Virus record (IMG/VR): IMGVR_UViG_3300016484_000424
Coordinates: 1 to 58,780 of that record
Length of the DNA stretch: 58,780 bases
DNA from: a virus
Lineage: Duplodnaviria > Caudoviricetes
Strand: one strand, 5' to 3'
The translations under genes were made by a program, and so were the position numbers. The number at the start of each line of letters is the position of its first letter. Position 1 is the first letter of the stretch. Positions 13-58,780 of the stretch are shown here, one piece after another. The notes under the pieces are model-generated. The model saw only the letters and a list, made by a program, of their open reading frames with translations, searched no databases and was not told the DNA's origin.

Positions 13-105
13 GCCTAACGTTCGAGGTGTGGCGCCCGCCGCGCAACCGACGTGCAAGTAAGGCGCGACCCGCTGCGGCGGGTCGCTACGACCGAGGGGT
101 TAGCC
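13..105 (-). mobile_element. attC-like site R3 (93 bp)
   Basis: Minus strand GGCTAAC-ccctc-GGT(C)GTAG...CCACACC-tcgaac-GTTAGGC: R''/L''/L'/R' boxes with the extra base at position 4 of L''. Confidence 0.85.
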
Positions 106-142: not shown

Positions 143-445
143 ATGAAGCGCATTTACATCAGCGGCCCGATGACCGGACTGCCAGAATTCAACTTCCCGG
201 CGTTCCACGCTGCCGCAGCCAAGCTGCGCGAGCGTGGGCACACTGCCGTGAACCCGGCCGAGATCAACACCGAGACGGGGGGCGACTGGCACTACTACCT
301 GAAGGCCGACATCAAGGCGCTCTGCGACTGTGATGCGCTGGCGCTGCTGCCAGGATGGCAGAACAGCAAGGGCGCCCATTTGGAGCTGCACATTGCGCAC
401 CGCTTGGGCTTGGAAATCGGAACGGTGGATGAGTTCGCCGGCTAA
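143..445 (+). CDS. DUF4406 / nucleoside 2-deoxyribosyltransferase-like protein (cassette-borne)
   Basis: RIYISGPMTG...N.PAF...NPA...LPGW..SKGA..E motif; stop codon falls in GGCTAAC. Confidence 0.85.
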   Translation: MKRIYISGPMTGLPEFNFPAFHAAAAKLRERGHTAVNPAEINTETGGDWHYYLKADIKALCDCDALALLPGWQNSKGAHLELHIAHRLGLEIGTVDEFAG

Positions 446-496
446 CGTTGCAATTGAGCCGCGCCGGTAGGCGTCGGCTCGAATTGCTTGTTCGGC
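440..496 (-). mobile_element. attC-like site R4 (57 bp)
   Basis: Minus strand GCCGAAC-aagca-ATT(C)GAGC...GCTCAAT-tgcaac-GTTAGCC; perfect L''/L' pairing. Confidence 0.9.
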
Positions 497-1376: not shown

Positions 1377-1429
1377 GCCGAACTCACCGCTGACCGGCTC
1401 GAAGAGTCCGGTCTAGCAAGACGTTGGAC
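1377..1429 (-). mobile_element. attC-like site R5 (53 bp)
   Basis: Minus strand GTCCAAC-gtctt-GCT(A)GACC...GGTCAGC-ggtga-GTTCGGC. Confidence 0.85.
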
Positions 1430-27672: not shown

Positions 27673-30600
27673 ATGGCTCGTGAAATTGAGTTGCACGATG
27701 GTACGGTCCTCGAATTTCCAGACAACACGCCGGATGACGTGCTGCTTCGCGTTGGCAAGCAGGAGACGCTGAAGCTCAACCAGTACAACACCGACGAAAC
27801 ATCGCGCCTTGCTGCGCGGGCCAATGCGGCGAAGGCTGATCCGGCGCCAGTTGCTGACGCGCCAGACAACTCGCCAGCGATGCCGATCGTGCCGTCATCG
27901 ACGCCATCGGTCTATGCCAACCCGGTGCAGCGCCTGCGGCGCATGGACAACCAGCAGCAGGCCGCGGCCACTGCGGCGACGCCACTGCTTGACCGGCCTG
28001 TTCCGGGCTATCAGCCATCGGGAGCCGACCTTGAGGCGATGTCCAATGCGCCGTCAGTGCTCCAGGCTGACGCGCGAGCCAAGCGGCCGTACCAAGAGGC
28101 CAAGCCGCTGACGTTTGCGCAAGAAGTCGCGGCCGACGTGGGCGACGTGGCGCGCAAGAACCCGCTGGCGGCTGGCGTAGTTGCTGGCTTCTCGGGTCTT
28201 GGCAAGGTTGGCGTGGGCGCCGTGCGCGCGGGAGCCGATCTGGTTGGTGCCGATGGCATCGCCAAATCAGCCGCTGGCGCGAGCCGCCTTGCCACCGACG
28301 TAGAGCAGCAGGCGACACGAGGCCTGGACGGCAATGCAAAGCTGGTGGCCGACGTTACCAGCTCGATCATCAACAGCGCGCCATCCCTGGCCATGGGCAT
28401 GATGGGCGGCCCCGCCCTGCGCACGCTGTTTGTCACTTCGGCGGCCAATGAGTACAACGCCGGCCGCGATGCTGGATTCAATGGCGCAGAGTCGGCGGCA
28501 CGCGCCGGCATCATGGGTGCGGCCGCGGCCATCGGCGAACGCTTTGGCTTTGCGCAGCAGATCGGCTTGCTCAAGGGCGCCATGAAGCGCATGCCGTCTG
28601 GCGACATGGCGAAGCTGCTGGGCCAGATGATCACCAACGAAGTGCCGGGCGAGCAGTTGACCACCGCCCTGCAGTTCCTGGCCGACAAGGCTGGCCCTGC
28701 GGCACTGAACCCGAATGCGACGGTTGAGGACTACCTCAAGGCCGCAGGCGAAACGTTGAAGGTCACGCTTGGCCAGTCGGCCGTCATGGGCGGCGGCCCG
28801 GTGGCAATCAACAAGGCGCGTGAAACACTGAAGCGGGTTGACTCTGGCTCGGGCGTGCGGGACATCCGCATTGCAGACGCCATCGACGCAGCCGAGCCCC
28901 CCAAGCGCCCGACCGAACTGCGCACCGAGCACATTGCCCGTGTTGACGACTTCGCGGCCACCCATGGCGTGCCGCCGACGGTGGTCAGCAAGATCAAGTC
29001 TGCACTGGACGGCGTGCCGCTGGCGCAACTGCCGCAGGCCACACGGGCGATTGTCTCGACCCTGGCCGAGCGCGGGATCATCCGGGCGCCGGTGGACGAG
29101 CAGACGCTGGCGAGCCTGGATGCGCCTGCACCGGTTCAGAGTGCGCCGAAGGATGCCATCCCGGCGGCCGACCTGATCGACCCGCAAGAGCCGAGCGCTC
29201 CACCGCCTGCCGACCCGCAGACCATTGCAGGCCCAGCCATCAACCGCAACTGGACGGCATTCAGCCCCGAGTCGGGCTCGCTGGGCATACCGCGCGACCA
29301 GATGCCGCAGATCCCGAACCGCGGCGCCCTGGCGAACTTCCTGGCCGCCAAGGGCATCGAGCGCCAGACCGGCATGGTGGACCCTTCGGAACTGAAGCCC
29401 ACGCAAGGCGAGTTCTCGCCTCAGAAGATCACGGAATCCGATTCCAGCCGATCGGTCATCGTTTCGAGCGACGGGTACATTCTGGATGGGCACCACCAAT
29501 GGCTGGCCCACTTGAACGACGGGGCGCCTGTCAGCGTCATCCGGTTCAACGCACCGATTCAGGATCTCCTGCGCTTGGCGCACCAGTTGCCGAGCAGCAC
29601 CACGGCCAAAGGGCCGACCATCAAGAAAGCCCAACCAGATGCAGGAACTGTTGACGGAAATGCTGGGCTTGGAGTTGATCAACCTGGAGCAGTTCAGCGA
29701 AGCGATGGCCTTCAGGATGTCCCCAGGGCTGATGCCGGAGCCGCTGCTGTTCCACCTGATGGGCGCCGAGAGCCTGATGGACCTGGACCCGGAAAGCGCG
29801 ACGATGCACTGACGCTGGACACGATCCAGCCGGGCGACATCACGCGGCCGGGTGGGGCGCCTTTCAGGACCATGGCAAATGCCATGTCGGCGCTGTCTCG
29901 CGCTGGCCAGGACACGCACGAGCTCGCAAGGGTCGAGGGCGGCTTGGTTGTCAGGGCGAAGAAGCAGGATCAGGGCGCTGCTGCGCCTGTAGGGGCCGGG
30001 AGTTCCCAGCCGTCGCCTGCTTCTTCGGCACCTGTTCGCGTCATCGCAGACGCTGGCCGCACGCGGGCTCAGGCGGTGCAGTTGGGCGTTGTTCCGAACG
30101 CTGACGGCTCCCTGACGCCCGTGATCGGCGGCGCACCGGTTCTGCAGAAGACCGGCGAGCCCGTGACCATCAAGCCTGATGCGACTGACCTTCAGATCAA
30201 GAAGGCTGTGCGCGAAGCAGGGACTGTGCCTGAGGCGGTGAAGTTCTACCCGCCTGCGGTGCAGGAGGAAGACGCGCCGCCAGCACCGAGGATCGACAAG
30301 GCGAAACTCGGCGCGATGACGGCTGACGAACTCGCCAGCGCTCATGAGACAGCGCGCGCCCACAACAAGGAAGTTGAGCGCATCGGCCTGAAGAAGTTCT
30401 TCGGCGCCGAGAAGGCCGACGAGTTGATGAAGCTGCCGCAACGCAGGCGCGACAAGTGGATGAGCGAGAACCTGACCGTCGAGCAAGACGACTGGATGCA
30501 GGCTCGCTATGCCAACGAGGACGATGTGCAGTCGTTCAAGACCACGGCGCATTCGTTCGACACGGAGAGCGCGGCCGCGCTTGGCCGATCCATCGCCGTG

Positions 30601-33600
30601 CCGTCACGCAAGGTCAACGATCCGGGGTTCTTCGATACCCCTGACGGCGCCATGGTGCGCAATGCCCTGAGGTACGCCAAGGCCCAGGGTTGGGACATGG
30701 ATGCGGTTGTCGGCGCGATGCGCGGCCGCGCTGCTGAGTGGGCCGGAGACGATGCGCCCGAGTTGTTCGGCCGTCTGTTCAAAGAGGCTGGAGTGAAGCT
30801 GCCGAGTGCAGCCATACCGAAGGCCATCGAAGCACCCACCACCAAGCCCGAGAGTGCGGTTCCAACTGGTGACCGCACCCAAGAACGCGCAGAGCACGCC
30901 GCCCTACTCGAAGAAGCAGGCATCACCAAGGAAGAGATCAATGCGCTCCATGGCACCGACATCACAGAAGCCCTCGCTGAATCTCCCGCCAAGGCTGAAG
31001 ACAAGCCCGCAGCGCGAAGCACTGAGGCAGGGGGCGCTGAGCAAGATCCGGGAGATGTCGCCGGAGAAGCGGCAGCGCCTGATGCTGCTGGAGGCCAAGA
31101 GGCGGGGCCTGACCGTGAAGGGCTGACCCTCACCACGCACACCACCGCCAAGGGCAAGACCCTTGAGGGCTACATCGTTGCTGTCAGCAAGGAGCGCGCG
31201 GCCGAGATCGACCCCTATACATTCCGCAAGGATGGGGGCTACTTCATCCGCAAGGCCCGTGCTGATGAACTGAGCAAGGAAGAACTTGCGGCCCTGGCTG
31301 ATGCGAAGCCTGTGGAGGCGGCAGCCAAGCCTGAAGCCGCGGAGCCGAAGGCAGAAGCCGAGCCCGAGAAGCCCAAGGCCAGCAAGACGGCCGCCATGCG
31401 TGCGGTGGCCCAGCGCGCCATCGAAGCCGCCCAGGCCGACCAGTCGCGCGACCGGAACACGAACACCGCGCGCCGTGCTGCAATGGCGAGTTCTGCGGAG
31501 TCTGACGCTCGCAAGCGCGAGGCAGTTGGCCGAACGATGCTGAACCTGGCTGACGCCATCGACAAGGGCGAAGCGCCTTTGCTGGAGGGCATCACTACGC
31601 GGGCACACGTTGAGGAACTGGACAGGGCGCTCACGGCGGCCATGTACGAGAGCGACCGAGGCTTGTCCTACGTGGAACAGCAGCGCCAGAAGGGCCGCGC
31701 GCCGGAAGAGCGCGACATCGCTAACGCCAAGATTGTGCAGCCGTCATGGAGCAATGGCGGTGCCAACAAGGAGAAACTGCGCGAAGCCATCAAGGGCAAG
31801 AAGGGTGTCCGCGAGGTCGAGAAGTTGCTGTTCGGCCCGCCGACTGCCGAGCTTCTGGCGGCCGTCAAGGCTATGGGCGTGTCCAAGAAGGACATTGACT
31901 ACGCTTTCGGCTGGTGGAACATCGAGGCGATTGCCCGCGTTCAGCGTCTTGCCAAGGTCGGCATCAAGACGAACGATGACTTGCGCGCTGCGCTGCGGCA
32001 GTACATTCAGTTCAAGGACGGCCCGAAGGCCGAAGACCCCATCAAGGCCCTGGAGCGCAAGTTGATCGGCTCCAAGGTGGGCTTTGACTTCTTCCCCACG
32101 CCCGCTGGCGTTGCCCAGCAGATGGTGCAACTGGCCGACATCAAGGCTGGCGACCGCGTGCTTGAGCCAAGCGCTGGCAACGGCAACATCGCTGACGCAG
32201 CCAAGGCCGCAGGCGCCAAGGTGGATGTCATCGAGATCAGCAGCCAATTGCGCGAGCTTCTGGAGGCCAAGGGCTACCCGGTTGTCGAGAACGACTTCAT
32301 GAAGTTCGAGCCCGCCGAGAAGTACGACGCGGTGCTGATGAACCCGCCCTTCAGCAACCGCCTGGACGCCGAGCACATCCGCCGCGCGTTTGGCATGGTG
32401 AAGCCCGGCGGCAAGGTCATCGCCATTGCTGGCGAAGGCGTCTTCAACGGCTCCGACGCGAAGGCCAAGGAGTTCCGCGACTGGCTGGACGAGGTTGGCG
32501 CAGTGGTCGAGAAGCTGCCCGAGAAGACCTTCACCGACTCCAAACTGCTGGCTCAGACTTCGACCAACGCACGGCTGATCACGATTGCGGCGCCTGCCGC
32601 ACAAGCCGCTGCCCCCAGTGCAACCACAGATGCACAGAAGGCTGCGAAGAGTGAGGAAGTTGCAGCAGAGCCAGCCAAGCCAGCAGCGCAGTCCAAGAAC
32701 TCCACAAATCTGTTTGAGGAGTTCATTGCGAGTTATGAGACTCCGCAAGAGGCTGGTGCCGCACGCAAAGCACTGGGCGCAACGGTGACTTGGAAAAACG
32801 GACTCACGGGGGCCTTGTCGGACCACATCCTTTCTGAGTATTCGGCTGGCGCCCGCGTTGTTCTGAGTGCCAGCGGGCCAGCGTTTGTCCACAAAGACAT
32901 GAAGGGATGGTCTAAGAGCAACATCGGCGCGTACGGCATGCAGTTTGCCAATTGGCTTTCGTCGCAAGACGATGTTGGAGCCAAGCCAGCAGCGCAGGCT
33001 GAGAAGGCCCTATTCAACACCAAGGATGATGGCTACACTGCGACCAATGAGTTCCAACCCGACTTCTCAGAGCCCGCAAGAGCAAACATCCGGCTGCTTA
33101 CTCGTGGAGTCGGAGGTCGGGCCAATACGGTTCATCCTTATGTCGGAAGAAGCGTATCAGCGGATGCGCCCATCAGCCTTGTGGCCCAGGCCATCGGAGC
33201 GCGAGTACAGTGGTTCGGAGTACGGAGCAGTCTGGACGCGCAAGACAAGCGTGACTTCGGATTCTTCAACGGCGCAACCATTGGCGACACCATCTTCCTT
33301 CGATCCGAAGGCGTTGACAGACCGCACCTGACGGTTCTGTTTCACGAGTTCGCGCACTACTTGCGGAAGACCGATCCGCAGGCTTACGCGGAACTGGTCG
33401 ATGCTGTTTCGCCATTCGTCAAGGTAGACAAGTACGAAGCGGAATTTCCGAATACGGCTGTGGCGCGCAACGTCAAGACGCCTGACGGAGTTCAAGAAGA
33501 GTTCATGGGCGAGGTGCTGTCTGACGCATCCATGAGCCCCAAGTTCTGGAGCGCCCTCGGCAAGAACAACCCCTCGCTGCTTCAGAAGGTGGCTGGCTTC

Positions 33601-36600
33601 ATCTTCGACATGATCAACAAGATCAAGGCGACGGTGGGCTACTCCAACAAGACCGAGAAGTACCTGAGCGACTTTGACCGGGTGATGGAGCTTGTGGGCG
33701 AAGTGCTGGCGAAGCACGACATCAAGCCCAGCAGTCTCAGGGGCATGGATGGCAAGCCGGTCTACAACCGCAAGGAAGACGAAACCCCTGTCACCTCGCA
33801 AGGCCGCCTGAAGTCCAAGGTCGGCGACATGATCAATTCCCACTTCGCTGGCACGATCAGCGGGTGGGACAAGACAGTGGGCACGCCGTACAACCTGGCG
33901 CAGCGCAGGCCTCAGTTCAAGCGGGTGTTTGATGGCCTGACGGACTTCATCAATGGGGTTTCGACCTTTGCGCATACCGCCGCTGACAAGGCGCCGACGT
34001 GGCTTCCAAGTCTGAACAGCGTCAGCGACTTCTTTGAGCGCCGCCCTGCGGACAGCAAATCATTGCTTCCATTCCGCATCAAGACCCCAGTGAAGCGCGA
34101 AGACAGCGATGCCGTGGCAAAGCCCATCTTCGAGGGCACCATCGCCTGGACCCGCGACGGCAAGGGCGAGCCCATCAAGATCGAAGAGGCCAAGGCCGCC
34201 GCCGAGAAGTTGAGCGTGGACGAGAAGGCCCGCGCGCTGCTGAAGGGCGGCCACGTCGCGCCGCGCGTGCTGAAGATGTGGCAGGGCCAGGAGCTCGACG
34301 CCTACGAGAAGATCATCGTCGGCAAGTACGAGCGCGACATGCTGGCTACCGGCATCGTCTTCACGCCCGACGAACTGAAGTCCATCTTCGGCCTGACGCC
34401 CAAGCAGATCGGGCTCTACAAGGAGTTCCACGCTGGTGTGGGCAAGAGCCTGGAGGACATGACGGTTTCGGCCATGCTGCGCGTTGGCGGCAAGGACACG
34501 GCAGACTTGCGCGAGCAGGCCCTGAAGATGTCCATGGACGATGCGGCCGAGTTGCTGCGCGACCGGATGTACGAACTGGCTGCCCAAGCATCTGGCAAGG
34601 CCAAGGAAGAGTTGGACGCCGCCGGCGACCAGATGATCGAACTGGCCGACAAGGTGAGCGCACTGAAGCGCCGCGGCTATGCCCCGCTGATGCGTTTTGG
34701 CGACCTGACCATCACGGCCTACGACAAGACCGGCGAGATGACCTACTTCGGCATGTACGAGGGCAAGGTCGAGCGCTTCACGGCCCTGCAGAAACTCAAG
34801 GCCGAGTTCCCTGAGGCAACCTTCAAGATGGGCTCAGTCTCCAAGGAAGAGTACAAGCAGTTCGCGGCCATCTCGCCCGAAACCCTTGAGCTCTTCGGCG
34901 ACATCATGGGCGACAAGCTGGGCTTCAACACCAGCGATCCGGTCTATCAGGAGTACCTGCGCAAGGCCAAGGCCAACAACTCGGGCATGAGGCGCCTGAT
35001 CCACCGCAAGGGCACGGCAGGCTACCGCGAAGAGCCGGCCCGCGTGCTGGCCTCGTTCATCTACTCCAATGCCCGGCAGACCTCGCGCAACCTGCACTCA
35101 GGCGACATCGCCCAGGCCATCGCCGACATTGACCGCGAAGAAGGTCAACTGAAGGACTACGCGATCAAGCTGGACGAGTACGTGCGCAACCCGCAGGAAG
35201 AGGCGCAAGCCATCCGTGGGCTGATGTTCGTCAACTTCATCGGCGGCTCGCTGGCCAGCGCTGCTGTCAACCTGACCCAGCCGTTTGCCGTCACCCTGCC
35301 CTACCTGCACGCCTTCGACGCCAAGGCCAGCCTCAGGATGAGCAACGCCCTGCGCGTGATGTGGTCCAAGAAGACCGGCAACACCAAACTGGACGCAGCC
35401 ATCGCAGAAGCCGAGCGCATCGGCATTCTGGATCCGCAGGAGATCCACCACCTACAGGCCCAGGCGCGCGGCGCCGAGCAACTGAAGTCTGGCAGGGGTG
35501 TGATCGGCAAGACCGCGGCCAAGGCCAGCAATTCACTTTCGCGCCTGATGGTCCTATGGGGCACGCCGTTCAGTCTGGCCGAGGCCTTCAACCGCCGCCT
35601 GACCTTCGTGTCGGCCGCGATGATCGCCATTCACAAGGGCATGGACCCAGTGGAGTTCGGCAAGAAGGCGATTGCGGAAACGCAGTTCGTGTATTCAAAG
35701 CACAACAACCCGGTATGGGCACGCGGCGCAGTCGGCGCAACCCTGTTCACCTTCAAGAAGTTCGGCGTCTCATGGATCGAAACCATGGTTCGCTTGGCCA
35801 ACTCCGGCCCGCAAGGTAAGGCCGCTGCGCTGGTCATGCTGGCCGCGCTGGTCATGCTGGCTGGTGTTGATGGCCTGCCCTTCCGCGAAGACCTTGAAGA
35901 CCTGATCGACGGCTTTGCCAACCGGGTGCTGGATCGCAACTTCCAGACGAAGGCATGGCGACACAAGCTGACCAAGCAAGTCTTCGGTGAGGGCTGGTCC
36001 AACTTCGTGAACAACGGGCTGTCGGGGCTGCCGGGATCGCCGATCGACGTGTCGGGTCGCTTGGGTATGCACAACCTGATTCCGATGACCGGCCTGATGG
36101 TAAAGAAGACGGACTACACCCGCGACGTGATGGAGATCACTGGCGCGGCCGGCGGCATCCTGAAGCAGTATGCTGAGGCAGCCGCTCTTCTTGCCGAAGG
36201 CGAAGTCTTGCGTACCGCGGCAAAGGCGTTGCCGATCGCAGGACAGAACATCCTCAAGGCGGCAGACATGGCGAACACTGGCGCCTACCGCGATGCTCGC
36301 GGGTACATCGTGACGAAGACGACGCCGGCCGAGGCCGCAGCCAAGGCGATTGGCTTCCAGCCGAAGTCGGTGGCCGATGAGCAGGAAGACAACTTCGGCC
36401 AGCAGCGCCGGATTGCCTTCGTCAAGATGGTTGAATCCGAGCTGGTCGAACGCATGGCGGCCGGCAAGTTCTTGAAGGATGAGGACATGTTCAAGGCAGC
36501 CAATGATCGCTTGGCCACATGGAACAAGGACAACCCGGACTCAGTGATCAAGATCGACGCCCGACAGATCATCGAGCGCGTGAAGAAGATGAACACGCCG

Positions 36601-36672
36601 AAGAACCAACGCATCATCCAATCCGCTCCGCGCGAAATGCGGGGCTCCGTTCAGGAGGCATTCCAGCGATGA
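27673..36672 (+). CDS. Giant polyvalent virion protein (PLxRFG family) with ParB-like, N6-MTase-like and zincin domains
   Basis: ILDGHHQW; FFPTP, VLEPSAGNG, NPPF; LFHEFAH; YAPLMRFG. Confidence 0.85.
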   Translation: MAREIELHDGTVLEFPDNTPDDVLLRVGKQETLKLNQYNTDETSRLAARANAAKADPAPVADAPDNSPAMPIVPSSTPSVYANPVQRLRRMDNQQQAAATAATPLLDRPVPGYQPSGADLEAMSNAPSVLQADARAKRPYQEAKPLTFAQEVAADVGDVARKNPLAAGVVAGFSGLGKVGVGAVRAGADLVGADGIAKSAAGASRLATDVEQQATRGLDGNAKLVADVTSSIINSAPSLAMGMMGGPALRTLFVTSAANEYNAGRDAGFNGAESAARAGIMGAAAAIGERFGFAQQIGLLKGAMKRMPSGDMAKLLGQMITNEVPGEQLTTALQFLADKAGPAALNPNATVEDYLKAAGETLKVTLGQSAVMGGGPVAINKARETLKRVDSGSGVRDIRIADAIDAAEPPKRPTELRTEHIARVDDFAATHGVPPTVVSKIKSALDGVPLAQLPQATRAIVSTLAERGIIRAPVDEQTLASLDAPAPVQSAPKDAIPAADLIDPQEPSAPPPADPQTIAGPAINRNWTAFSPESGSLGIPRDQMPQIPNRGALANFLAAKGIERQTGMVDPSELKPTQGEFSPQKITESDSSRSVIVSSDGYILDGHHQWLAHLNDGAPVSVIRFNAPIQDLLRLAHQLPSSTTAKGPTIKKAQPDAGTVDGNAGLGVDQPGAVQRSDGLQDVPRADAGAAAVPPDGRREPDGPGPGKRDDALTLDTIQPGDITRPGGAPFRTMANAMSALSRAGQDTHELARVEGGLVVRAKKQDQGAAAPVGAGSSQPSPASSAPVRVIADAGRTRAQAVQLGVVPNADGSLTPVIGGAPVLQKTGEPVTIKPDATDLQIKKAVREAGTVPEAVKFYPPAVQEEDAPPAPRIDKAKLGAMTADELASAHETARAHNKEVERIGLKKFFGAEKADELMKLPQRRRDKWMSENLTVEQDDWMQARYANEDDVQSFKTTAHSFDTESAAALGRSIAVPSRKVNDPGFFDTPDGAMVRNALRYAKAQGWDMDAVVGAMRGRAAEWAGDDAPELFGRLFKEAGVKLPSAAIPKAIEAPTTKPESAVPTGDRTQERAEHAALLEEAGITKEEINALHGTDITEALAESPAKAEDKPAARSTEAGGAEQDPGDVAGEAAAPDAAGGQEAGPDREGLTLTTHTTAKGKTLEGYIVAVSKERAAEIDPYTFRKDGGYFIRKARADELSKEELAALADAKPVEAAAKPEAAEPKAEAEPEKPKASKTAAMRAVAQRAIEAAQADQSRDRNTNTARRAAMASSAESDARKREAVGRTMLNLADAIDKGEAPLLEGITTRAHVEELDRALTAAMYESDRGLSYVEQQRQKGRAPEERDIANAKIVQPSWSNGGANKEKLREAIKGKKGVREVEKLLFGPPTAELLAAVKAMGVSKKDIDYAFGWWNIEAIARVQRLAKVGIKTNDDLRAALRQYIQFKDGPKAEDPIKALERKLIGSKVGFDFFPTPAGVAQQMVQLADIKAGDRVLEPSAGNGNIADAAKAAGAKVDVIEISSQLRELLEAKGYPVVENDFMKFEPAEKYDAVLMNPPFSNRLDAEHIRRAFGMVKPGGKVIAIAGEGVFNGSDAKAKEFRDWLDEVGAVVEKLPEKTFTDSKLLAQTSTNARLITIAAPAAQAAAPSATTDAQKAAKSEEVAAEPAKPAAQSKNSTNLFEEFIASYETPQEAGAARKALGATVTWKNGLTGALSDHILSEYSAGARVVLSASGPAFVHKDMKGWSKSNIGAYGMQFANWLSSQDDVGAKPAAQAEKALFNTKDDGYTATNEFQPDFSEPARANIRLLTRGVGGRANTVHPYVGRSVSADAPISLVAQAIGARVQWFGVRSSLDAQDKRDFGFFNGATIGDTIFLRSEGVDRPHLTVLFHEFAHYLRKTDPQAYAELVDAVSPFVKVDKYEAEFPNTAVARNVKTPDGVQEEFMGEVLSDASMSPKFWSALGKNNPSLLQKVAGFIFDMINKIKATVGYSNKTEKYLSDFDRVMELVGEVLAKHDIKPSSLRGMDGKPVYNRKEDETPVTSQGRLKSKVGDMINSHFAGTISGWDKTVGTPYNLAQRRPQFKRVFDGLTDFINGVSTFAHTAADKAPTWLPSLNSVSDFFERRPADSKSLLPFRIKTPVKREDSDAVAKPIFEGTIAWTRDGKGEPIKIEEAKAAAEKLSVDEKARALLKGGHVAPRVLKMWQGQELDAYEKIIVGKYERDMLATGIVFTPDELKSIFGLTPKQIGLYKEFHAGVGKSLEDMTVSAMLRVGGKDTADLREQALKMSMDDAAELLRDRMYELAAQASGKAKEELDAAGDQMIELADKVSALKRRGYAPLMRFGDLTITAYDKTGEMTYFGMYEGKVERFTALQKLKAEFPEATFKMGSVSKEEYKQFAAISPETLELFGDIMGDKLGFNTSDPVYQEYLRKAKANNSGMRRLIHRKGTAGYREEPARVLASFIYSNARQTSRNLHSGDIAQAIADIDREEGQLKDYAIKLDEYVRNPQEEAQAIRGLMFVNFIGGSLASAAVNLTQPFAVTLPYLHAFDAKASLRMSNALRVMWSKKTGNTKLDAAIAEAERIGILDPQEIHHLQAQARGAEQLKSGRGVIGKTAAKASNSLSRLMVLWGTPFSLAEAFNRRLTFVSAAMIAIHKGMDPVEFGKKAIAETQFVYSKHNNPVWARGAVGATLFTFKKFGVSWIETMVRLANSGPQGKAAALVMLAALVMLAGVDGLPFREDLEDLIDGFANRVLDRNFQTKAWRHKLTKQVFGEGWSNFVNNGLSGLPGSPIDVSGRLGMHNLIPMTGLMVKKTDYTRDVMEITGAAGGILKQYAEAAALLAEGEVLRTAAKALPIAGQNILKAADMANTGAYRDARGYIVTKTTPAEAAAKAIGFQPKSVADEQEDNFGQQRRIAFVKMVESELVERMAAGKFLKDEDMFKAANDRLATWNKDNPDSVIKIDARQIIERVKKMNTPKNQRIIQSAPREMRGSVQEAFQR

Positions 36673-36869: not shown

Positions 36870-37064
36870 ATGGCTTGGGTAGCAGTCAAGTCGCGCGCCA
36901 TCCGCGCCATCGACTACGACAAGGAGAGCCTTGAGCTCGAAATCATGTTCGCTCAGGGGAATTCCTACACCTACTACAACGTCCCGCCGCAGGTTGTGGC
37001 TGGCCTCTTGGGTGCGAACTCAAAAGGCCAGTTCTACAACAACTTCATCAAGGACCGGTACTGA
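36870..37064 (+). CDS. KTSC domain protein
   Basis: V.S..I.AIDYD....LEI.F..G..Y.Y..VP.....L..A.SKG.FYN..IK..Y. Confidence 0.9.
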   Translation: MAWVAVKSRAIRAIDYDKESLELEIMFAQGNSYTYYNVPPQVVAGLLGANSKGQFYNNFIKDRY

Positions 37065-37818
37065 ACAAATCCTTCGGCGTCTTCACCGAGAAGATTCCGG
37101 CCAGCTTGGTCAGCCCCTTGGGCAGGATGTGGCAGTACGGCGCGTGCACCTTCTGACCAGTCTTCTGGTCGGTGTAGCTGCATTCCTTGTACTGCAGGTT
37201 TCCGTTCTTGATGTGCGGCTGGTAGGCCACCCATCTGCCATTGAGGCGATAGACCCAGCCGTTGGCATGCAGCCAGTTGGTCAGTTCTTCTTGCTTGACG
37301 CTCAGGATCTTGCTGGCTTCTCGGAAGGTGATCGAGCCTTCTTCGGCTGAGATCAGGTCCAGCGCATCAGCCTTGGGCGCAGCGATGGCCAGGGCGGTTT
37401 CTGCCTTGTCGGCGCGCTCTGACTCGTCAGCGGCAAGGCGAAGCGCTTCGGGCAGGCTCTTGGGGATCTTGCCGTAGAAGCCCGAGGCTGCCAAGTTCAC
37501 CTGCTGCATGCAGACCATGGCGTCATAGGCCCGGATGACCTTCAGGTGGAAGGCTGCATTGATCCACATGGCGTAGGCGTAGACCAGCTCCTTGGCGACG
37601 TAGGTGCCCTGTTCGTTTGGAATCCCGCCCTTTTGGGCCGATGCGGAAATTCCCGCATCGCCAAGTTCGGCGATCAGTGCCTGGGTCTGCTTGTTACGAA
37701 GCCACTCGCCCGGCCTGTGGTTGGGATTCCCGCCGCTGGCCTTGTGCAGATCGTTCAGGCAGTACCGCCCTTCCCGGTCAATGCGGATCTCGATGTTGGC
37801 GATGATGAGTTCGCTCAT
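37048..37818 (-). CDS. ant: Antirepressor (KilA-N plus KilAC/ANT)
   Basis: GRYCLNDLHKASG, GTYVAKELVYAYAMWI..AFHLKVIR; P.SLPEALRLAAD, APKA, PKGL.KLA. Confidence 0.9.
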   Translation of the reverse strand: MSELIIANIEIRIDREGRYCLNDLHKASGGNPNHRPGEWLRNKQTQALIAELGDAGISASAQKGGIPNEQGTYVAKELVYAYAMWINAAFHLKVIRAYDAMVCMQQVNLAASGFYGKIPKSLPEALRLAADESERADKAETALAIAAPKADALDLISAEEGSITFREASKILSVKQEELTNWLHANGWVYRLNGRWVAYQPHIKNGNLQYKECSYTDQKTGQKVHAPYCHILPKGLTKLAGIFSVKTPKDLFSTGP

Positions 37819-38275: not shown

Positions 38276-38461
38276 TCACAAAAGGCGGCAGCCCTGGCGG
38301 GTTGACAGACAGGGAGCACCGCGGAGCGGAAACCTGCGAGCCTTTCGGCTCCCCGCCAGGACCACCATTGAAAGTGTCCAGGCAACAAAAAAGCCGCAGA
38401 AGAACTCGATGCGGCTTTGGCCGCGGTACTCTCGGGCTGTCAAACCCGACTGCTTTCTCAA
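38276..38461 (-). CDS. Ash/Icd-like leader ORF
   Basis: CGFF......MV..AG..K.R pattern; overlies the antisense RNA. Confidence 0.4.
   Translation of the reverse strand: MRKQSGLTAREYRGQSRIEFFCGFFVAWTLSMVVLAGSRKARRFPLRGAPCLSTRQGCRLL
38285..38368 (-). ncRNA. C4/CI-type antisense RNA
   Basis: CCTGGCGGG/CCCGCCAGG closing stem, GAGCC-GAAA-GGCTC hairpin; CCGCGGTGCTC and CTGTCAA are complementary to upstream TTGACAG..GAGTACCGCGG (38421-38446). Confidence 0.7.
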
Positions 38462-39384: not shown

Positions 39385-39424
39385 GTGTTAGCGGCGCAAT
39401 TTGTCGCCCTAAATCAAGTTAGGC
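39385..39424 (+). mobile_element. attI-like site heading cassette array L
   Basis: TGTTAGCGGCGCAATTTGTCGCCCTAAATCAAG/TTAGGC vs attI1 TGTTACGCAGCAGGGCAGTCGCCCTAAAACAAAG/TT (recalled); no attC hairpin here. Confidence 0.75.
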
Positions 39425-39706
39425 CCGCTCATACGCAGCACGCAAGCGGGCCAAGTGCTCTTGGTTCATGTGGCCGTCGTCGAGGATGTCGGCAACCGCG
39501 GCCAGCAGTTCGGAGCCTGTGCGCTTGTCTGGCAGCACTTCCACACCCGCCACCTCGCGGTAGTCATAGGCGCCGTTCCGGTCCAGGCCGCCACCACGAA
39601 GCACGCTCTCCAACTCCTGGCACTCAGCATCTACGGTTTCCAGGCTCTCGGTAGCCAGCCCGGTTCCGCGATCAAGCTCGCGGCGGCGTATCACAAATCG
39701 AAGCAT
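39419..39706 (-). CDS. Hypothetical protein, cassette L1
   Basis: AGGAG RBS; stop falls in the core site. Confidence 0.75.
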   Translation of the reverse strand: MLRFVIRRRELDRGTGLATESLETVDAECQELESVLRGGGLDRNGAYDYREVAGVEVLPDKRTGSELLAAVADILDDGHMNQEHLARLRAAYERA

Positions 39707-39733: not shown

Positions 39734-39794
39734 GCCTAACAGGGCAATAGATCAGACCGGGCCGCGCCCGGCTCGCTCATCGCCAGCGTTAGGC
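39734..39794 (+). mobile_element. attC-like site L1 (61 bp)
   Basis: GCCTAAC-agggc-AATAGATC...GCTCATC-gccagc-GTTAGGC; L boxes imperfect. Confidence 0.8.
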
Positions 39795-40168
39795 CGCAGG
39801 GCCAGCATCGCTGCGCGGTACTGTTCGGTCTGCAGACGTTTCAGCGGTTCCTCGTTGCGCTTCAGCGCGCACCAAGCCACAGCGCCCGCCCACCCCCATT
39901 GCTCAACCGCTGCGCGCACTTCCTTCGCCTCGTGCGGCTCAAGCGCGCAGGCATCGGCGCTGGCGTAGTAAAAGGTGTCGTTGCAGTTCACGGCCGCGTG
40001 CCATCCATCATCCCAATCGCATATGCCCGAGTTGTAAGTGCCGAAGAAAACGTAGTTCCGCGCAGCTAGCCAAAACAGGTGCTCGCAGTCCTCCAGCGTC
40101 AGCGGCCTAACAGGTCGCTCAAGCGGGACCGCGTCGGCGCGGCTGCGTTGGTTTGCTTCGTCACTCAT
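39752..40168 (-). CDS. Hypothetical protein, cassette L2
   Basis: AAGGAGG RBS and start lie inside attC L2; NCNDTF.YA.ADA motif; ends inside attC L1. Confidence 0.8.
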   Translation of the reverse strand: MSDEANQRSRADAVPLERPVRPLTLEDCEHLFWLAARNYVFFGTYNSGICDWDDGWHAAVNCNDTFYYASADACALEPHEAKEVRAAVEQWGWAGAVAWCALKRNEEPLKRLQTEQYRAAMLALRPNAGDERAGRGPV

Positions 40169-40206
40169 GGCTCGCGCCTCCTTGTCCGGTTAGCTTTGCG
40201 TTATGC
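40105..40206 (+). mobile_element. attC-like site L2 (102 bp)
   Basis: GCCTAAC-aggtc-GCT(C)AAGC...GGTTAGC-tttgc-GTTATGC. Confidence 0.85.
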
Positions 40207-40470
40207 ATGCTCGAAGACATGGAACACCAGAGCGCCACCATGCGTTTGGTATGTGCCGATGAATCGCCCGATGATGTCTGGCAGATCAGGCATTGGCTTG
40301 ACCGTGCCATAGGTGGAAAACGCGCGCGATTCTGTCGGCGCCGTTTCATCAACAAGCGCCCACAGTTGCGGATCGCCGCCTTGCATCTGCACGCTCAGAA
40401 CTTCGGCGCCGCGCGGCATCAGCAATTCCTGATAGTCGGTTACCTGAAGGGTCCATTTCCAAATCCTCAC
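40201..40470 (-). CDS. Conserved small phage protein, cassette L3
   Basis: IWK..L.....Q...MP.GA.VLSVQ.Q....LWALVD...FIGT.Q...G.LVFHVFE. Confidence 0.8.
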   Translation of the reverse strand: MRIWKWTLQVTDYQELLMPRGAEVLSVQMQGGDPQLWALVDETAPTESRAFSTYGTVKPMPDLPDIIGRFIGTYQTHGGALVFHVFEHA

Positions 40471-40491
40471 GGCTCACTCCTTGCCATCAAT

Positions 40492-40578
40492 GCATAACAT
40501 CTAGCTGCAACAGACGCGCTGCAGCATTTGGGTTAATCGGTGCGTCCAGCGGGCGCGCTGTTGAGCATGGCGTTAGGC
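40492..40578 (+). mobile_element. attC-like site L3 (87 bp)
   Basis: GCATAAC-atcta-GCT(G)CAAC...GTTGAGC-atggc-GTTAGGC. Confidence 0.9.
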
Positions 40579-40865
40579 GGCTCGTGGCGCGCGGGCGGCC
40601 ATGCAGCGCGCGGGCTTTCGGCGTTGTCGGCCTCCATTGCCACCATCAGCGCAATCAGGGCTTCGCGGGTTCGCATCGAACGGCCGCCGCCAGCGCCGCC
40701 AGCGCAAAACTCCACCGTGCTGGTGTGAACTTGGCTGCCCATGCCCGTGCCGGTAACGGCCAGCACTACATCGCCGTCGTCCTGCAAATGCAGGACCATC
40801 TGGTGGTCGCCTGCAGGCCCCATATCGCCGCATCGTCCTACCGTCCGTTTCTTCGGCCATTCCAT
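40533..40865 (-). CDS. Hypothetical protein, cassette L4
   Basis: VEFC..G.GGGRS..TR.AL..L..AM..DN motif; C-terminus runs into attC L3. Confidence 0.75.
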   Translation of the reverse strand: MEWPKKRTVGRCGDMGPAGDHQMVLHLQDDGDVVLAVTGTGMGSQVHTSTVEFCAGGAGGGRSMRTREALIALMVAMEADNAESPRAAWPPARHEPPNAMLNSAPAGRTD

Positions 40866-40899
40866 CGCTCTCGCCCTTTCGTGCCTTCGTTCACCAGCC

Positions 40900-40997
40900 G
40901 CATAACACGTCGCTCAACACGAGCGCCAACGGGTCACGGCCTTTGCTCCTGTCCAGTCCTTCCCGCCGCTGGCTCCGTGTTAGCTCCAACGTTAGGC
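40900..40997 (+). mobile_element. attC-like site L4 (98 bp)
   Basis: GCATAAC-acgtc-GCT(C)AACA...TGTTAGC-tccaac-GTTAGGC. Confidence 0.9.
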
Positions 40998-41348
40998 CTT
41001 ACCGGGCCGCGCACGGGCAAAAGCTCCCACGCAGCTCGTGTCGCTCTTGGCCTGCTGCCTGAGTTCGGCCGCCGTGGTCACGCGCGGCTTGCTTCGGTGC
41101 TTGGCCGCTACCGCTTCAAGTTCTCGCGGCGTCACCGGCGCATTCATGTAGCCGCCCGCGTAGTCAGCGAGCGCCATGCGCAGTATCTGGTGCGCCTCGC
41201 GCCCTTCCGCGATCCGCACAACTTCCGGGGAGCGGTTTAGCAGCGCCACGGCTTGGCACACTGCAGCGTGCAGCGCTTCGGCGGCAGCAGGCCTAACCCC
41301 TCGGTCAACGGCGACACCTGCCGGCTGGTCACTCTTGCTCATCTTCAA
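40992..41348 (-). CDS. Hypothetical protein, cassette L5
   Basis: AGGAG RBS and start lie inside attC L5; stop falls in the core. Confidence 0.7.
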   Translation of the reverse strand: MKMSKSDQPAGVAVDRGVRPAAAEALHAAVCQAVALLNRSPEVVRIAEGREAHQILRMALADYAGGYMNAPVTPRELEAVAAKHRSKPRVTTAAELRQQAKSDTSCVGAFARARPGKA

Positions 41349-41391
41349 TCTCCTGTAGCGCCGCCGTCAGCGGCTCAACTCTGCGTTAGAA
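41291..41391 (+). mobile_element. attC-like site L5 (101 bp)
   Basis: GCCTAAC-ccctc-GGTCAACG...GCTCAAC-tctgc-GTTAGAA; L boxes pair poorly (possible hybrid). Confidence 0.7.
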
Positions 41392-41853
41392 CTCACCCTC
41401 CGCCACCTGGAAGCATGGCACGCCGGCAGCGCGCCACATCTTCACCATCCGGTCGCGGTCCTCAAACACTGCCACCAGCCGCGCCTTGTCGCTGACCAGC
41501 ATGTCGTCAAGCCAGCGCTTCTTGAGCACGTCGTCTGGTGTGTAGTCGCCGGCCTTGCGCATGGTCAACATCGGGCCTTCCAACTCCCAAGACATGAAGG
41601 TCGTCTTGTCGGCCAGCCACTTGACCGTCTGCGTCCGCACCTCATCGCTGCGCCCGCTGAAAATCCAGATGTCGGCCCCCGCATGGCGCAGCCGTTCCAT
41701 CGTGTCGATAACAGGGTCGTTCGGGAGGTCGTCCGCGCACGCGGCGTAAAACGCTTTCCAATCTTGTTCGCCGCGCGGGCGCTCCACGTACTTGCGGCGG
41801 TGCTCAATCAGCGCCAGGGTGCCGTCAAGATCAAAGATGTACAGAGGTCTCAT
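41386..41853 (-). CDS. HAD-family phosphatase (PNKP 3'-phosphatase-like)
   Basis: IFDLDGTL, SGR, MR..GD..PD..LK, FEDR..V.MWR..G.PCFQVA. Confidence 0.85.
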   Translation of the reverse strand: MRPLYIFDLDGTLALIEHRRKYVERPRGEQDWKAFYAACADDLPNDPVIDTMERLRHAGADIWIFSGRSDEVRTQTVKWLADKTTFMSWELEGPMLTMRKAGDYTPDDVLKKRWLDDMLVSDKARLVAVFEDRDRMVKMWRAAGVPCFQVAEGEF

Positions 41854-42797
41854 TTCGCGCCCCTCCGCTGCCAAGCCACCCAGCCCAGCCCCAGCAGCAT
41901 CAATGCCCACTCGGCAGGCTCTGGCACTGGCGCCACCGGCACAGCCGAGTCAGGCAGTTTCACCGGCTCTGGAACTGGTGCAACCGGCGCCCCAGGCGCA
42001 GGCGACATCACTGCATCACCGATGATCGGCGTCACCTTCTTCGCATCGATCACCATCGGCGCCACGCCCGGAACCGGCGCGAACGTCAGCACTGAAGGCG
42101 TGGCAGCAAACGCCACCGGCTGCACCCACAGCGGACCCAGGAGCGGCGCGGGCAGGGTCGGCCAGTAGATCGGTACAGCAGGCGGCAAGAGAGGTCGCCA
42201 AGTGTCTTCCGGCGTGTCCAACTCTTGGTTGCCATCGGGGATCGGCTCAGGCGCAGACAGCCGCGCGAATGATTGCCTCGGCACGGCATCGGCAACCGGT
42301 CCCGGCGTCACATCAGGCACGCTCACCGGCACGGCCACTGGCAGCGGCGGGACCAGCGCGGGCGGGGCTTCTGTCGTCAGGCTGGGCGGCGGTGAGATGC
42401 GATTGCCTCGGGTGATGAGGCTTACATTCCGGCAGACACTCGGGACCGCAATCGACCACTCGCCTACCGTGTAGATGAGCGCCCGCTCGCCGGTGTCCTT
42501 GGGCGCCCACATGCTGGTGTTGACAATGCCGCACAGCTTCGAGCCGTTCCCGAAGTGCATCATTCGCAGCGGGCCATATTCCCACGTTGCAGACGCGATC
42601 CCGGCGCTGGTGATGTGCGCTGTGTCGTCGTACTGGCGTGCGCGCATCTTGGCTTTCAGCGCCTCGCGGGTGGGCTTCGGAATCTGCGTGTAGGTGTCCA
42701 CAGCCGAAGGCAGATCGCCCATGTAGGGATCTAGGCCGCGGTCGGACCAATTGCACGTTGCAGTGATTGCCGCAGCGGCGGCTAGGGTGAGGATCAT
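41850..42797 (-). CDS. MHFG-family PEP-CTERM protein
   Basis: C.W...G.DPYMG, MHFG, VPSVCRNVS; C-terminal VPEP.EWALMLLGLGWVAWQRR. Confidence 0.85.
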   Translation of the reverse strand: MILTLAAAAAITATCNWSDRGLDPYMGDLPSAVDTYTQIPKPTREALKAKMRARQYDDTAHITSAGIASATWEYGPLRMMHFGNGSKLCGIVNTSMWAPKDTGERALIYTVGEWSIAVPSVCRNVSLITRGNRISPPPSLTTEAPPALVPPLPVAVPVSVPDVTPGPVADAVPRQSFARLSAPEPIPDGNQELDTPEDTWRPLLPPAVPIYWPTLPAPLLGPLWVQPVAFAATPSVLTFAPVPGVAPMVIDAKKVTPIIGDAVMSPAPGAPVAPVPEPVKLPDSAVPVAPVPEPAEWALMLLGLGWVAWQRRGAK

Positions 42798-57776: not shown

Positions 57777-57868
57777 CGCAAGGCAAACTCATCTGCACCC
57801 GTTGCGGCCGAGAGGGGCATTCAGCCTCTTCGTGCAAGCAGCCGATCCCCAACGGGGCCAAGCCATGA
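57773..57868 (+). CDS. 31-aa zinc-knuckle peptide
   Basis: CTRCGREGHSASSC matches CX2CX4HX4C; 4-nt overlaps on both sides. Confidence 0.6.
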   Translation: MTQGKLICTRCGREGHSASSCKQPIPNGAKP

Positions 57869-58122
57869 CCGGCGAGCGCCCCACCGGATCAATCCCCGGA
57901 GTCGTCATCAGCGCCGTCATCACCGAAGGCCTGCGCATCAGCGTGGATGGCCGCCCTGCCCGGCTGGCGATCATCAGCGACGACGGGCAGATCGTGGACG
58001 ACAGCCCGCGCGTGGCCCAAGAAGTCGAGTCGGCTGCGATCAACAGCTACCGGAGCTTCCAGCGTGGGGCTGGGCATCTGGTGGTGAGGGCGGGTAACGC
58101 CCGAGTTCAGCCGCTGCCGTAG
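57865..58122 (+). CDS. Hypothetical protein ending inside attC R1
   Basis: ATGA overlap; reads through GGTAAC. Confidence 0.6.
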   Translation: MTGERPTGSIPGVVISAVITEGLRISVDGRPARLAIISDDGQIVDDSPRVAQEVESAAINSYRSFQRGAGHLVVRAGNARVQPLP

Positions 58123-58149
58123 GCAGTCGGCTGGAACGAAGTGTTAGGC
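58092..58149 (-). mobile_element. attC-like site R1 (58 bp)
   Basis: Minus strand GCCTAAC-acttc-GTT(C)CAGC...GCTGAAC-tcgggc-GTTACCC. Confidence 0.9.
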
Positions 58150-58175: not shown

Positions 58176-58622
58176 ATGATTGAACTGATGGAAGAAACCG
58201 CAAACATGATGCGCGGCATGTGCATGGACCCACGCATTCCAAAGGACACCAAGGAAGCGCTTTGGTCGCGCATCAGCAAGCTGGACGCGGCCACCGAAGC
58301 GGCGGCGGACGACAAGGCTGGAGAACCTGTAAGCAGCGCTTACGAGTTGAAGCCGGCCGCCTGGATCGACAACAGCGGCCACCCGCACCACCTGAACCAC
58401 ATTCAGGGCGTGCGTGAGCGACAGTTGTACGGCCCGCTGCGGCCCCTGTACGACGAGCAGGCGATGTGGAACGCCTGCGCGCGGGCCGAAGGCATAGGGC
58501 GCGACCAGATCAAGGCGCGACTGCTGGAATTGCACGAGGCGCACAAGCACCAGCACAACTACTTTGCGTGGGCTGTGCAGGAGTTGTTTGTGGCGCGCCG
58601 CTTTAGCGGACGAGTGGCCTAA
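58176..58622 (+). CDS. Hypothetical protein, cassette-borne
   Basis: GAGG RBS; stop falls in GCCTAAC. Confidence 0.75.
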   Translation: MIELMEETANMMRGMCMDPRIPKDTKEALWSRISKLDAATEAAADDKAGEPVSSAYELKPAAWIDNSGHPHHLNHIQGVRERQLYGPLRPLYDEQAMWNACARAEGIGRDQIKARLLELHEAHKHQHNYFAWAVQELFVARRFSGRVA

Positions 58623-58704
58623 CGCCAGGTTAAGCGGCGCCCCGCGCTGACAGGGGCAAGACGCGCGGACGCCCCTGGGCGTCCGCTTGAACCGACAGTT
58701 CGGC
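58617..58704 (-). mobile_element. attC-like site R2 (88 bp)
   Basis: Minus strand GCCGAAC-tgtcg-GTT(C)AAGC...GCTTAAC-ctggc-GTTAGGC; L boxes match those I recall for the aadA1 attC. Confidence 0.92.
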
Positions 58705-58780
58705 CTCACGGCCGTGGAGAAGCGAACGATGGAACAGCAAGCACTCAATCTGCCAGGGCCGCGGATCAGCCGCATTACGC

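Follow-up and report, generated by a model that had tools for sequence, protein, structure and literature searches.

The ten attC-like elements carried by one phage genome raise the question of which gene each site belongs to, the one before it or the one behind it. The window considered here, meaning the whole stretch of DNA that was analysed, is the IMG/VR virus record IMGVR_UViG_3300016484_000424 (58,780 bases, 63% GC; linear class, 89% complete). Integron cassettes are generally viewed as promoterless top-strand genes expressed from the promoter Pc, with reversed cassettes as exceptions bearing promoters of their own. As judged from its sequence, the phage of the window probably carries integron-type cassettes of reversed polarity, with the gene on the attC bottom strand. 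Four observations carry this reading: the architecture and polarity of the sites, the breakpoints of DNA homology, the occurrence of one cassette in two contexts, and two integron integrase (intI) loci in which genes read toward intI. An initial annotation of this DNA had proposed that attC sites double as translation starts and as exchangeable C-terminal tails; what it had observed in the sequence was partly confirmed, and its interpretation was partly supported.

Architecture and polarity of the attC-like sites

The elements form two clusters, one at 39.4-41.4 kb and one extending from 57.9 kb to the contig end and running on into 1-1.4 kb; five sites occupy 39.7-41.4 kb, and five are spread from 58.1 kb up to the contig end and over 1-1.4 kb. 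Inverted AAC...GTT boxes are present in all ten, some with letters that depart from RYYY/RRRY (GGGTAAC, TTCTAAC and GCATAAC). The string GGCCTAAC occurs nine times against 0.71 expected, a count that none of 100 shuffles reaches, and all nine copies fall either within 39.4-41.4 kb or between 58.1 kb and the contig end together with the first 105 bases. An architecture score of 13 pairs covers the box, an unpaired spacer of 4-7 nt, a 3-bp L box, a bulge, a stem of 6-7 bp, a second bulge and further stem; seven of the ten elements score 12-13/13, against 7-10 on the other strand. Site lengths are 53-102 nt, and the 53-nt site falls just under the published range of about 57-141 nt (PMC5027507). 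The elements are listed with their score against that of the other strand and, for some, the z score of folding energy relative to shuffles.

E1, 41291..41391, minus strand: R' box TTCTAAC, canonical 3' arm (T..G ACC GAGGG GTTAGGC), non-complementary 5' arm; 8/13, z +0.14
E2, 40900..40997, minus strand: R' box GCCTAAC, unpaired central spacer of 6, L box GCT/AGC, R'' box GTTATGC, 6-bp stem with extrahelical G16 and T23, bottom strand on the minus (coding) strand; 12/13 against 10
E3, 40492..40578, minus strand: well-formed, extrahelical C16 and T23, bottom strand on the minus strand; 13/13 against 9
E4, 40105..40206, minus strand: weak attC, boxes GCATAAC and R'' GTTAGGC; 10/13 against 9, z +0.35
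E5, 39734..39794, minus strand: short attC-like hairpin of weakly defined polarity; 10/13 against 8, z -3.57
Site A, 58092..58149, plus strand: textbook 58-nt attC, extrahelical G and T on the 3' arm; 13/13 against 7, z -4.07
Site B, 58617..58704, plus strand: bottom strand on the plus strand, G16 and T23 with a 6-bp stem between; 13/13 against 8
Site C, 13..105, plus strand: attC, bottom strand on the plus strand; 13/13 against 8
57-nt attC, 440..496, plus strand: bottom strand on the plus strand; 13/13 against 7, z -5.62
53-nt attC-like site, 1377..1429, plus strand: bottom strand on the plus strand; 12/13 against 8, z -1.6

In attC sites, G at position 16 and T at 23/24 are the usual extrahelical bases, separated by a 6-bp stem, and on the bottom strand they lie on the arm opposite the AAC triplet (Nivina et al., PMC5027507). 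In the control, plasmid R100, the extra bases of the aadA1 attC belong to the 5' arm as read on the coding strand, and the bottom-strand scanner places its bottom strand antisense to aadA1. Across 80 bacterial loci with IntI relatives, the scanner returned 35 matches of score at least 18, of which 28 lie upstream of intI on the intI-sense strand (the canonical geometry), 2 upstream on the other strand and 5 downstream; in all 11 bacterial cassettes between consecutive matches, the longest open reading frame (ORF) is antisense to the bottom strand.

A strict scan of the window gave 10 matches, compared with 0-4 (mean 1.9) in 10 shuffles. Seven of these are well-formed cassette sites, and in both divergent arms the bottom strand of each coincides with the coding strand there; the remaining three (1740-1816, 25162-25316 and 58367-58430) have poor boxes and resemble noise. 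Every flanking gene with family or homologue support (PF25109, DUF7352, DUF4406, PHROGs; 18, 29, 101 and 134 homologues) lies on the bottom strand of its site. A canonical cassette would have its ORF on the top strand and its attC downstream; here, the bottom strand is the coding strand at 7/7 well-formed sites. Among the relatives, 14 distinct canonical-box matches in six GC-rich phage loci (L003/L016, L045-L048 and L050) are all on the gene strand, and the other 19 of 34 matches, of score 16-18 and in AT-rich loci, are noise-like. On the evidence of the sequence, then, the genes occupy the bottom strand of attC, opposite to those in canonical cassettes, and we take the architecture and polarity of the sites as established. 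The aadA1 cassette (In2, plasmid R100) has the same boxes, spacers, bulges, site length and site polarity relative to intI, but its ORF is on the top strand, its attC follows the gene and its crossover follows the hairpin; in the window this order is reversed, with the crossover at the stop codon.

Read in the gene direction, such a cassette would consist of the C of the junction, a spacer, the L' arm, a variable loop, the L'' arm with its two extrahelical bases, a spacer, GTTRRRY, the gene body and RYYYAA. The folded site would thus precede its own gene, its loop could hold the ribosome binding site, the ATG and the first 15-20 codons, and the ORF would then cross the box in either open frame (VRP or xLG). 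The integrase would cut at AA|C at the 3' end of the gene. A TAA on the last three cassette bases would leave the protein end independent of what follows, and otherwise a run-on of 6-19 codons (7-12 here) into the next attC arm would produce a neighbour-dependent tail. Transcription would come by read-through of the phage early operon, and the cassettes would be moved by an integron integrase, whether host- or phage-borne.

Probable crossover junctions and protein ends

Because the attC bottom strand is the coding strand, the crossover AA|C would fall at the 3' end of each gene. The genes of array 1 are small, lie on the minus strand and form a row downstream of a phosphatase gene, and the second array lies on the plus strand. 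Their genes are as follows.

41386..41910, minus strand: phage backbone gene for a polynucleotide kinase-phosphatase type HAD phosphatase (Pfam PF25109, E 1.3e-30); its TAA (41386-41388) lies inside TTCTAAC, the proximal edge of array 1
40992..41342 (annotated 40992..41348), minus strand: cassette gene 1; the leader MSKSDQPAGVAVDRGVRP reads through R'' and the gene ends with TAA in GCCTAAC; 101 homologues
40533..40865, minus strand: cassette gene 2; crosses 40573|40572 and has its last 12 codons (AMLNSAPAGRTD) in E3; 29 homologues
40201..40470, minus strand: cassette gene 3, DUF7352 (PF24043, E 5.9e-25; phrog_3848); starts after E3, TAA in GCATAAC
39752..40168, minus strand: cassette gene 4; starts in E4, crosses 39789|39788 and has its last 11 codons in E5; 18-protein alignment A1
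39419..39706, minus strand: cassette gene 5; TAA in GCCTAAC (39418-39424) with no hairpin after it, the distal edge of array 1
57865..58122, plus strand: gene that crosses GGGTAA|C (58097|58098) and has its last 7 codons in site A; 134 matches listed
58176..58622, plus strand: cassette gene, TAA in GCCTAAC; phrog_13384, E 2.8e-14
143..445, plus strand: cassette gene, DUF4406, nucleoside 2-deoxyribosyltransferase-like (PF14359, E 1e-27); TAA in GGCTAAC

In six genes (41386..41910, 40992..41348, 40201..40470, 39419..39706, 58176..58622 and 143..445), TAA forms bases 4-6 of an RYYTAAC box, in keeping with the earlier remark that genes other than the tailed ones end with TAA exactly at TAA|C. The three others (39752..40168, 40533..40865 and 57865..58122) read the first box as (P/G)N and end 7-12 codons later, and the tails that had been assigned to them from the adjacent attC (PNAGDERAGRGPV, PNAMLNSAPAGRTD and GNARVQPLP) are present as written. 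Since the crossover AA|C lies at the 3' end of the gene, these residues past PN/GN would be encoded by the attC of the next cassette. Of 16 sites preceded by a long ORF, 7 have that ORF ending at TAA|C and 9 have it running on for 6-19 codons.

Alignment of homologues, put forward initially as a check, gave the outcome expected of exchangeable tails, in that similarity stops at RPN/LPN or PPN and the tails then differ. Five of the 18 proteins aligned for 39752..40168 share RPN/LPN and continue into four different tails. The copy of this gene in the metagenome contig L003 is 84% identical in DNA up to the box and ends one codon later; a different attC follows the box there, and then a different gene. 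P0020, at 88% the closest homologue of 40533..40865, matches it as far as PPN and continues with VSR. For 57865..58122, most top matches among the 134 listed align query residues 34 to about 105-112 of 118, and thus end about at the box; their residue 1 corresponds to query residue 34, which places the start of this gene at 57865. The variable tails may matter to the proteins that bear them.

At the DNA level, the window is homologous to L003 as far as 39786, to L045 as far as 40991 and to L046 as far as 40990, within or at most 2 nt from R' boxes, and the match of the phosphatase gene to L049 breaks off at 41384. The same TTCTAAC is present in L049, where a Shine-Dalgarno (SD) sequence and the next gene come straight after it, without an attC. 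Cassette genes are 77-84% identical in DNA to those in L003 and in the phage contigs L045 and L046, two records without a portal match. The loci with relatives of gene 39752..40168 were retrieved by alignment-based scans; a scan of viral contigs with that single protein gave only one weak locus.

The cassette found in two contexts comes from the one sequencing run that holds the window DNA, which is labelled a freshwater metagenome, is probably the window's own source and is available as contigs; the runs listed for this DNA include none of RNA. There, the region is split into three contigs with overlaps at 40570-40599 and 40970-40999. The middle contig, of 430 nt, has a depth of 24.4, against 14.9 and 13.7 for its neighbours, and two alternative flanks (depths 9.0 and 8.1) join its ends and diverge from the window left of 40570 and right of 40999. 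The greater depth and the diverging flanks in the contig graph place the unit 40570..40999 (minus strand), which comprises an R' box, E2, the body of gene 2 and the next R' box, in two contexts within one sample, the second at 100% identity. The proposal that C-termini change with the neighbouring cassette is supported here, since homology ends at the box and one cassette has different sequence after the box in its two contexts.

A separate feature of gene 40992..41348 is its 31-residue C-terminal module PRVTTAAELRQQAKSDTSCVGAFARARPGKA (40995-41087, minus strand), which ends at TAA|C. It is present in 55 of the 101 matches, 41 of which lack the body motif of this protein. Because its DNA, differing by 7-11 bases across three loci, differs in 22 synonymous codons and only 2 non-synonymous ones, the module is, by its sequence, a conserved peptide domain common to unrelated small phage proteins. 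The alternative that it represents a second attC was rejected, as there is no hairpin and the constraint is at the protein level.

Proposed translation starts within the sites

Two genes of array 1 begin between the boxes of an attC-like element, about 101 nt apart in each case. For 39752..40168, the SD sequence GGAGG (40177-40181) and the ATG (40166-40168) lie between GCATAAC (40200-40206) and GTTAGGC (40105-40111), where the initial annotation had put them, and the ORF contributes 19 leader codons in E4 before reading the box as GTT AGG CCG, or VRP. No in-frame ATG, GTG or TTG occurs between this GTTAGGC box and the conserved core LTLEDCEHLFWLAA, leaving the ATG at 40168, 8 nt after GGAGG, as the sole available start. 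Relatives in L004 and L005 that have no attC start two or three codons before the conserved core (MIVKPLT). For 40992..41348, the SD sequence AGGAG (41350-41354) and an ATG likewise lie between boxes, TTCTAAC (41385-41391) and GTTAGGC (41291-41297), the latter read as GTT AGG CCT and again as VRP. To this extent its placement within the site held; the description of that place as an attC loop is inaccurate, as the 5' arm of E1 is non-complementary. From the sequence, the likelier start of this gene is the ATG at 41340-41342, favoured because the homologue P0061 begins MSKSDQ. The common frame of the two boxes is weak evidence by itself, because GT TAG is a stop and the box can be read in no more than two frames. 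Translation would begin at these ATGs within the sites. Given the reversed polarity, the start-bearing attC would lie in the same cassette as its gene, and the start would not be one lent by a neighbour.

Well-formed sites show the same arrangement elsewhere, namely in L003/L016, L045 and L050 (three or four), in G003/locus L059 (one) and in G002 (one). An ATG inside the site that opens an ORF running at least 30 codons beyond it is found in 6 of 21 canonical matches in phage loci, and a seventh in-frame ATG lies within L050 2018-2111; one L' box in L050 (GGTGAGG) is itself the SD sequence. The body motif of 40992..41348 is present in 52 homologues; 16 of them have VRP ahead of the junction, 6 have xLG (GTTAGGC read in its other open frame) and 30 have neither, and VRP leaders also head 9 proteins without the motif. 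The leader and 3' arm of E1 share 83% identity with L048 2478-2569, a locus with another gene body, and E4 is 80% identical over 106 nt to an element of L050 that precedes another gene. Given the reversed polarity, such shared leaders may be read as the mark of a homogeneous attC family.

The two start-bearing sites of the window, E4 and E1, are the poorest of the ten elements; neither folds better than shuffles, and both have decayed and are probably no longer proficient in recombination. The initial suggestion that attC hairpins in the mRNA could couple translation to the upstream gene gains no support from these two sites, which are weak hairpins; the stop of one gene and the start of the next are 30-45 nt apart.

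Two further arrangements were seen in relatives. An E4-type attC at L050 1512-1604 has an SD sequence and an ATG whose 11-codon frame stops at TGA in the L'' box, together with a second ATG, in another frame, that reads the box as GLG; the same site family can therefore give either a mini-ORF or a fused leader. In L004 and L005, at about 3750-4600 and with no attC, successive small genes are each preceded by GGGAGGTGAAGCC and then GTG, which is a repeated translation-start unit of another kind.

Integrases in relatives, competing explanations and genomic setting

Five viral records have cassettes in common with the window, and one of them, G002, is of the provirus class, 95% complete and bears an integron integrase at its end. 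This protein reaches 390 bits with TIGR02249 (cut-off 265); its identity to IntI1 is 54%, and the stretch specific to IntI aligns without a gap. A GCCTAA|C junction that is attI-like lies immediately upstream of the ATG and is followed by about nine attC-like sites (counted by eye); the array includes a homologue of site A and a gene with the C-terminal module of 40992..41348. In all four G002 sites that pass a looser pair filter, as in R100, the bottom strand is the intI-sense strand, and PHROG matches were obtained for 3 of 8 array ORFs directed toward intI and for 0 of 5 on the other strand. The window portal was not found in the five records that share cassettes, which is read only as no close structural kinship having been seen.

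The second intI locus, L060, is a short contig filed under an Aquiluna metagenome-assembled genome (MAG). Its integrase is the closest to that of G002 found among bacterial contigs (68% identical), and these two are at most 56% identical to those of the other 79 loci listed. A DNA methylase gene (PF01555, E 9.3e-28) reads toward intI and across GGCTAAC; a second ORF is also directed toward intI, and both run through their RYYYAAC box into the next site. Despite its filing under Aquiluna, L060 looks like this phage-type element. In both loci (L060 1-2609; L057, that is G002, 1-1100), the last RYYYAA|C junction is only about 50 nt before the intI ATG.

With these loci in view, the arrangement of the window may be set against other explanations. 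Under canonical polarity, each attC would belong to the gene upstream of it, the tails would be that gene's own, crossover would follow the hairpin, and starts within sites would either straddle the junction or be mis-called. The order of gene, RYYYAAC...GTTRRRY and next gene does look like an ordinary array, first-box stop codons are common in ordinary cassettes, and leaders common to unrelated gene bodies are what a G|TT junction predicts. The extrahelical bases, however, lie on the 3' arm of the coding strand in 7/10 sites, opposite to aadA1 and the bacterial arrays, the IntI geometry in G002 and L060 fits the reversed reading, and the unit found in two contexts is 40570-40999 and not the canonical 40498-40905, all of which makes this explanation very unlikely. 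A view of the elements as regulatory palindromes (terminators, attenuators or protein-binding sites) that merely resemble attC is hardly credible: they do stand between members of a single operon, translation signals occur in two of them, Rfam has no match to them and the window lacks an integrase, yet they display the full attC architecture of 7-bp boxes, a 4-7-nt unpaired spacer and bulges at 16 and 23/24, the same site family stands beside a true integron integrase with an attI-like junction, and homology breaks at the boxes. It is likewise unlikely that the array is a fossil of one integrase-mediated entry at the TTCTAAC of the phosphatase gene, with its members now fixed phage genes and their leaders and tails frozen accidents. 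The want of an integrase in the window, the degraded state of E1, E4 and E5 and the presence in L049 of TTCTAAC without cassettes speak for such an origin; against it stand the intact E2, E3, A, B, C and 440-496, the 100% identity of one cassette in a second context in the same sample, and the cassette genes shared at 77-84% DNA identity with L045, L046 and L003.

Reversed polarity has evidence of its own to contend with. No integron integrase is encoded in the whole 58,780-base record (TIGR02249, 0 matches). The polarity rule derives from substrates of IntI1 and VchIntIA and may not hold for another integrase, and the bottom-strand scanner is home-made, validated on one known site and on IntI geometry. 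The longest-ORF test, noisy at 63% GC, succeeds in only 8/12 cases in phage arrays, and of its 4 misses 2 concern bottom-strand genes with Pfam or PHROG support. E1 lacks a complementary 5' arm, and E4 and E5 reach only 10/13. Folding energy relative to shuffles singles out only short sites (440-496, A and E5), and the long sites do not out-fold shuffles, with z of -0.8 to -1.8 even for the well-formed E2, E3, B and C; this measure is a poor test for sites with long loops. The evidence for two contexts comes from one sample, probably the window source, and from contigs rather than reads. In other phages, attCs of the E4 and site-A types adjoin unrelated genes on both sides, so comparison alone does not prove that a site is linked to the gene downstream of it.

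The window has the make-up of an attC cluster that lacks an integron integrase (CALIN), with at least two close attC sites and no integron integrase nearby; a complete integron, with intI, attI and an array, is found in the provirus G002 and not in the window. Phage attC arrays without intI have been described as CALINs, and five phage attC sites recombine with attI1 under IntI1 (Qi et al. 2023, PMC9892861). As in the window, the attC sites of those phages lie between small ORFs in the absence of intI; the arrays of TJE1 and PH101 are termed "most typical of bacterial arrays", and the passages of that paper bearing on these sites make no mention of bottom-strand genes, starts within sites or tails spanning the crossover, unlike what is seen here. 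The nearest likeness for a start within a site may be ORF-11/ORF-18 of attI1, in which an SD sequence and ATG in the att site open a short ORF that runs over the junction and is supplied with its stop, or with extra residues, by the cassette next to it (PMC8876359). That ORF belongs to attI and encodes a leader peptide in its own right, which helps the following gene through coupling (PMC8876359), whereas the attC start in the window is fused in frame to the cassette protein and it is the C-terminus of the upstream gene that crosses the junction. Cassettes also insert at non-att genomic sites (attG) in bacterial chromosomes (Loot et al., bioRxiv 10.1101/2022.09.11.507474), and an insertion of this type could explain the first cassette entry at the phosphatase stop TTCTAA|C, which is uninterrupted in L049; the attG passages of that preprint hold nothing on phages or reversed ORFs. 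Literature searches, which did not cover subscription journals and supplements, found no paper on phage cassette genes on the bottom strand.

A wider reading is possible and is advanced tentatively, in which these elements would belong to a phage-adapted "mirror" integron. The G002/L060 integrase clade would sit at the end of a phage operon and be fed by cassettes pointing toward intI, with expression by read-through and not from Pc and with attC as a portable start module; the cassettes would be traded among phages with unrelated virions, including integrase-less ones, and C-terminal diversity would arise as a by-product. The position of intI at the end of a phage operon can be likened to that of int at the end of the leftward early operon of lambda. 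If true, phages would use the integron system in a way of their own, with the recombination site before the gene and carrying start signals. Phage cassettes would be wrongly labelled by annotation pipelines in which attC polarity decides the assignment of cassette genes, and a single recombination event would alter two proteins, one of the moved cassette and one through the C-terminus of the gene ahead of the insertion.

When the DNA of 39.2-41.95 kb was compared with 50,697 phage records, no cassette matched, and the sole match was to 95 nt of the phosphatase gene, present in 16 records of Xanthomonas/Stenotrophomonas phages; the source-named homologues of cassette genes are from Variovorax and Rubrivivax. 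Both contig ends fall within the second attC array, with site B near the 3' end and site C at 13-105. A break of the assembly in repeated or variable cassettes (58617-58780 and 1-105) is the probable cause, and the two ends may be contiguous with each other. A tRNA search of the window found none. The window also codes for a P22-type portal (PF16510, E 1.8e-84), terminase subunits, an Erf-type annealing protein, an exonuclease, a helicase, a primase and a KilA-N/ANT anti-repressor. A single ORF of 2,999 codons (27673-36672, plus strand) lies in the structural half of this podovirus-like genome. An Rfam scan of the window, made with a collection that has no attC family, gave as its sole match a C4 antisense RNA at 38281-38372 on the minus strand (RF01695; 60.6 bits against a gathering score of 45), which lies just upstream of the anti-repressor gene (37048..37818) in the manner of the P1/P7-type immunity arrangement.

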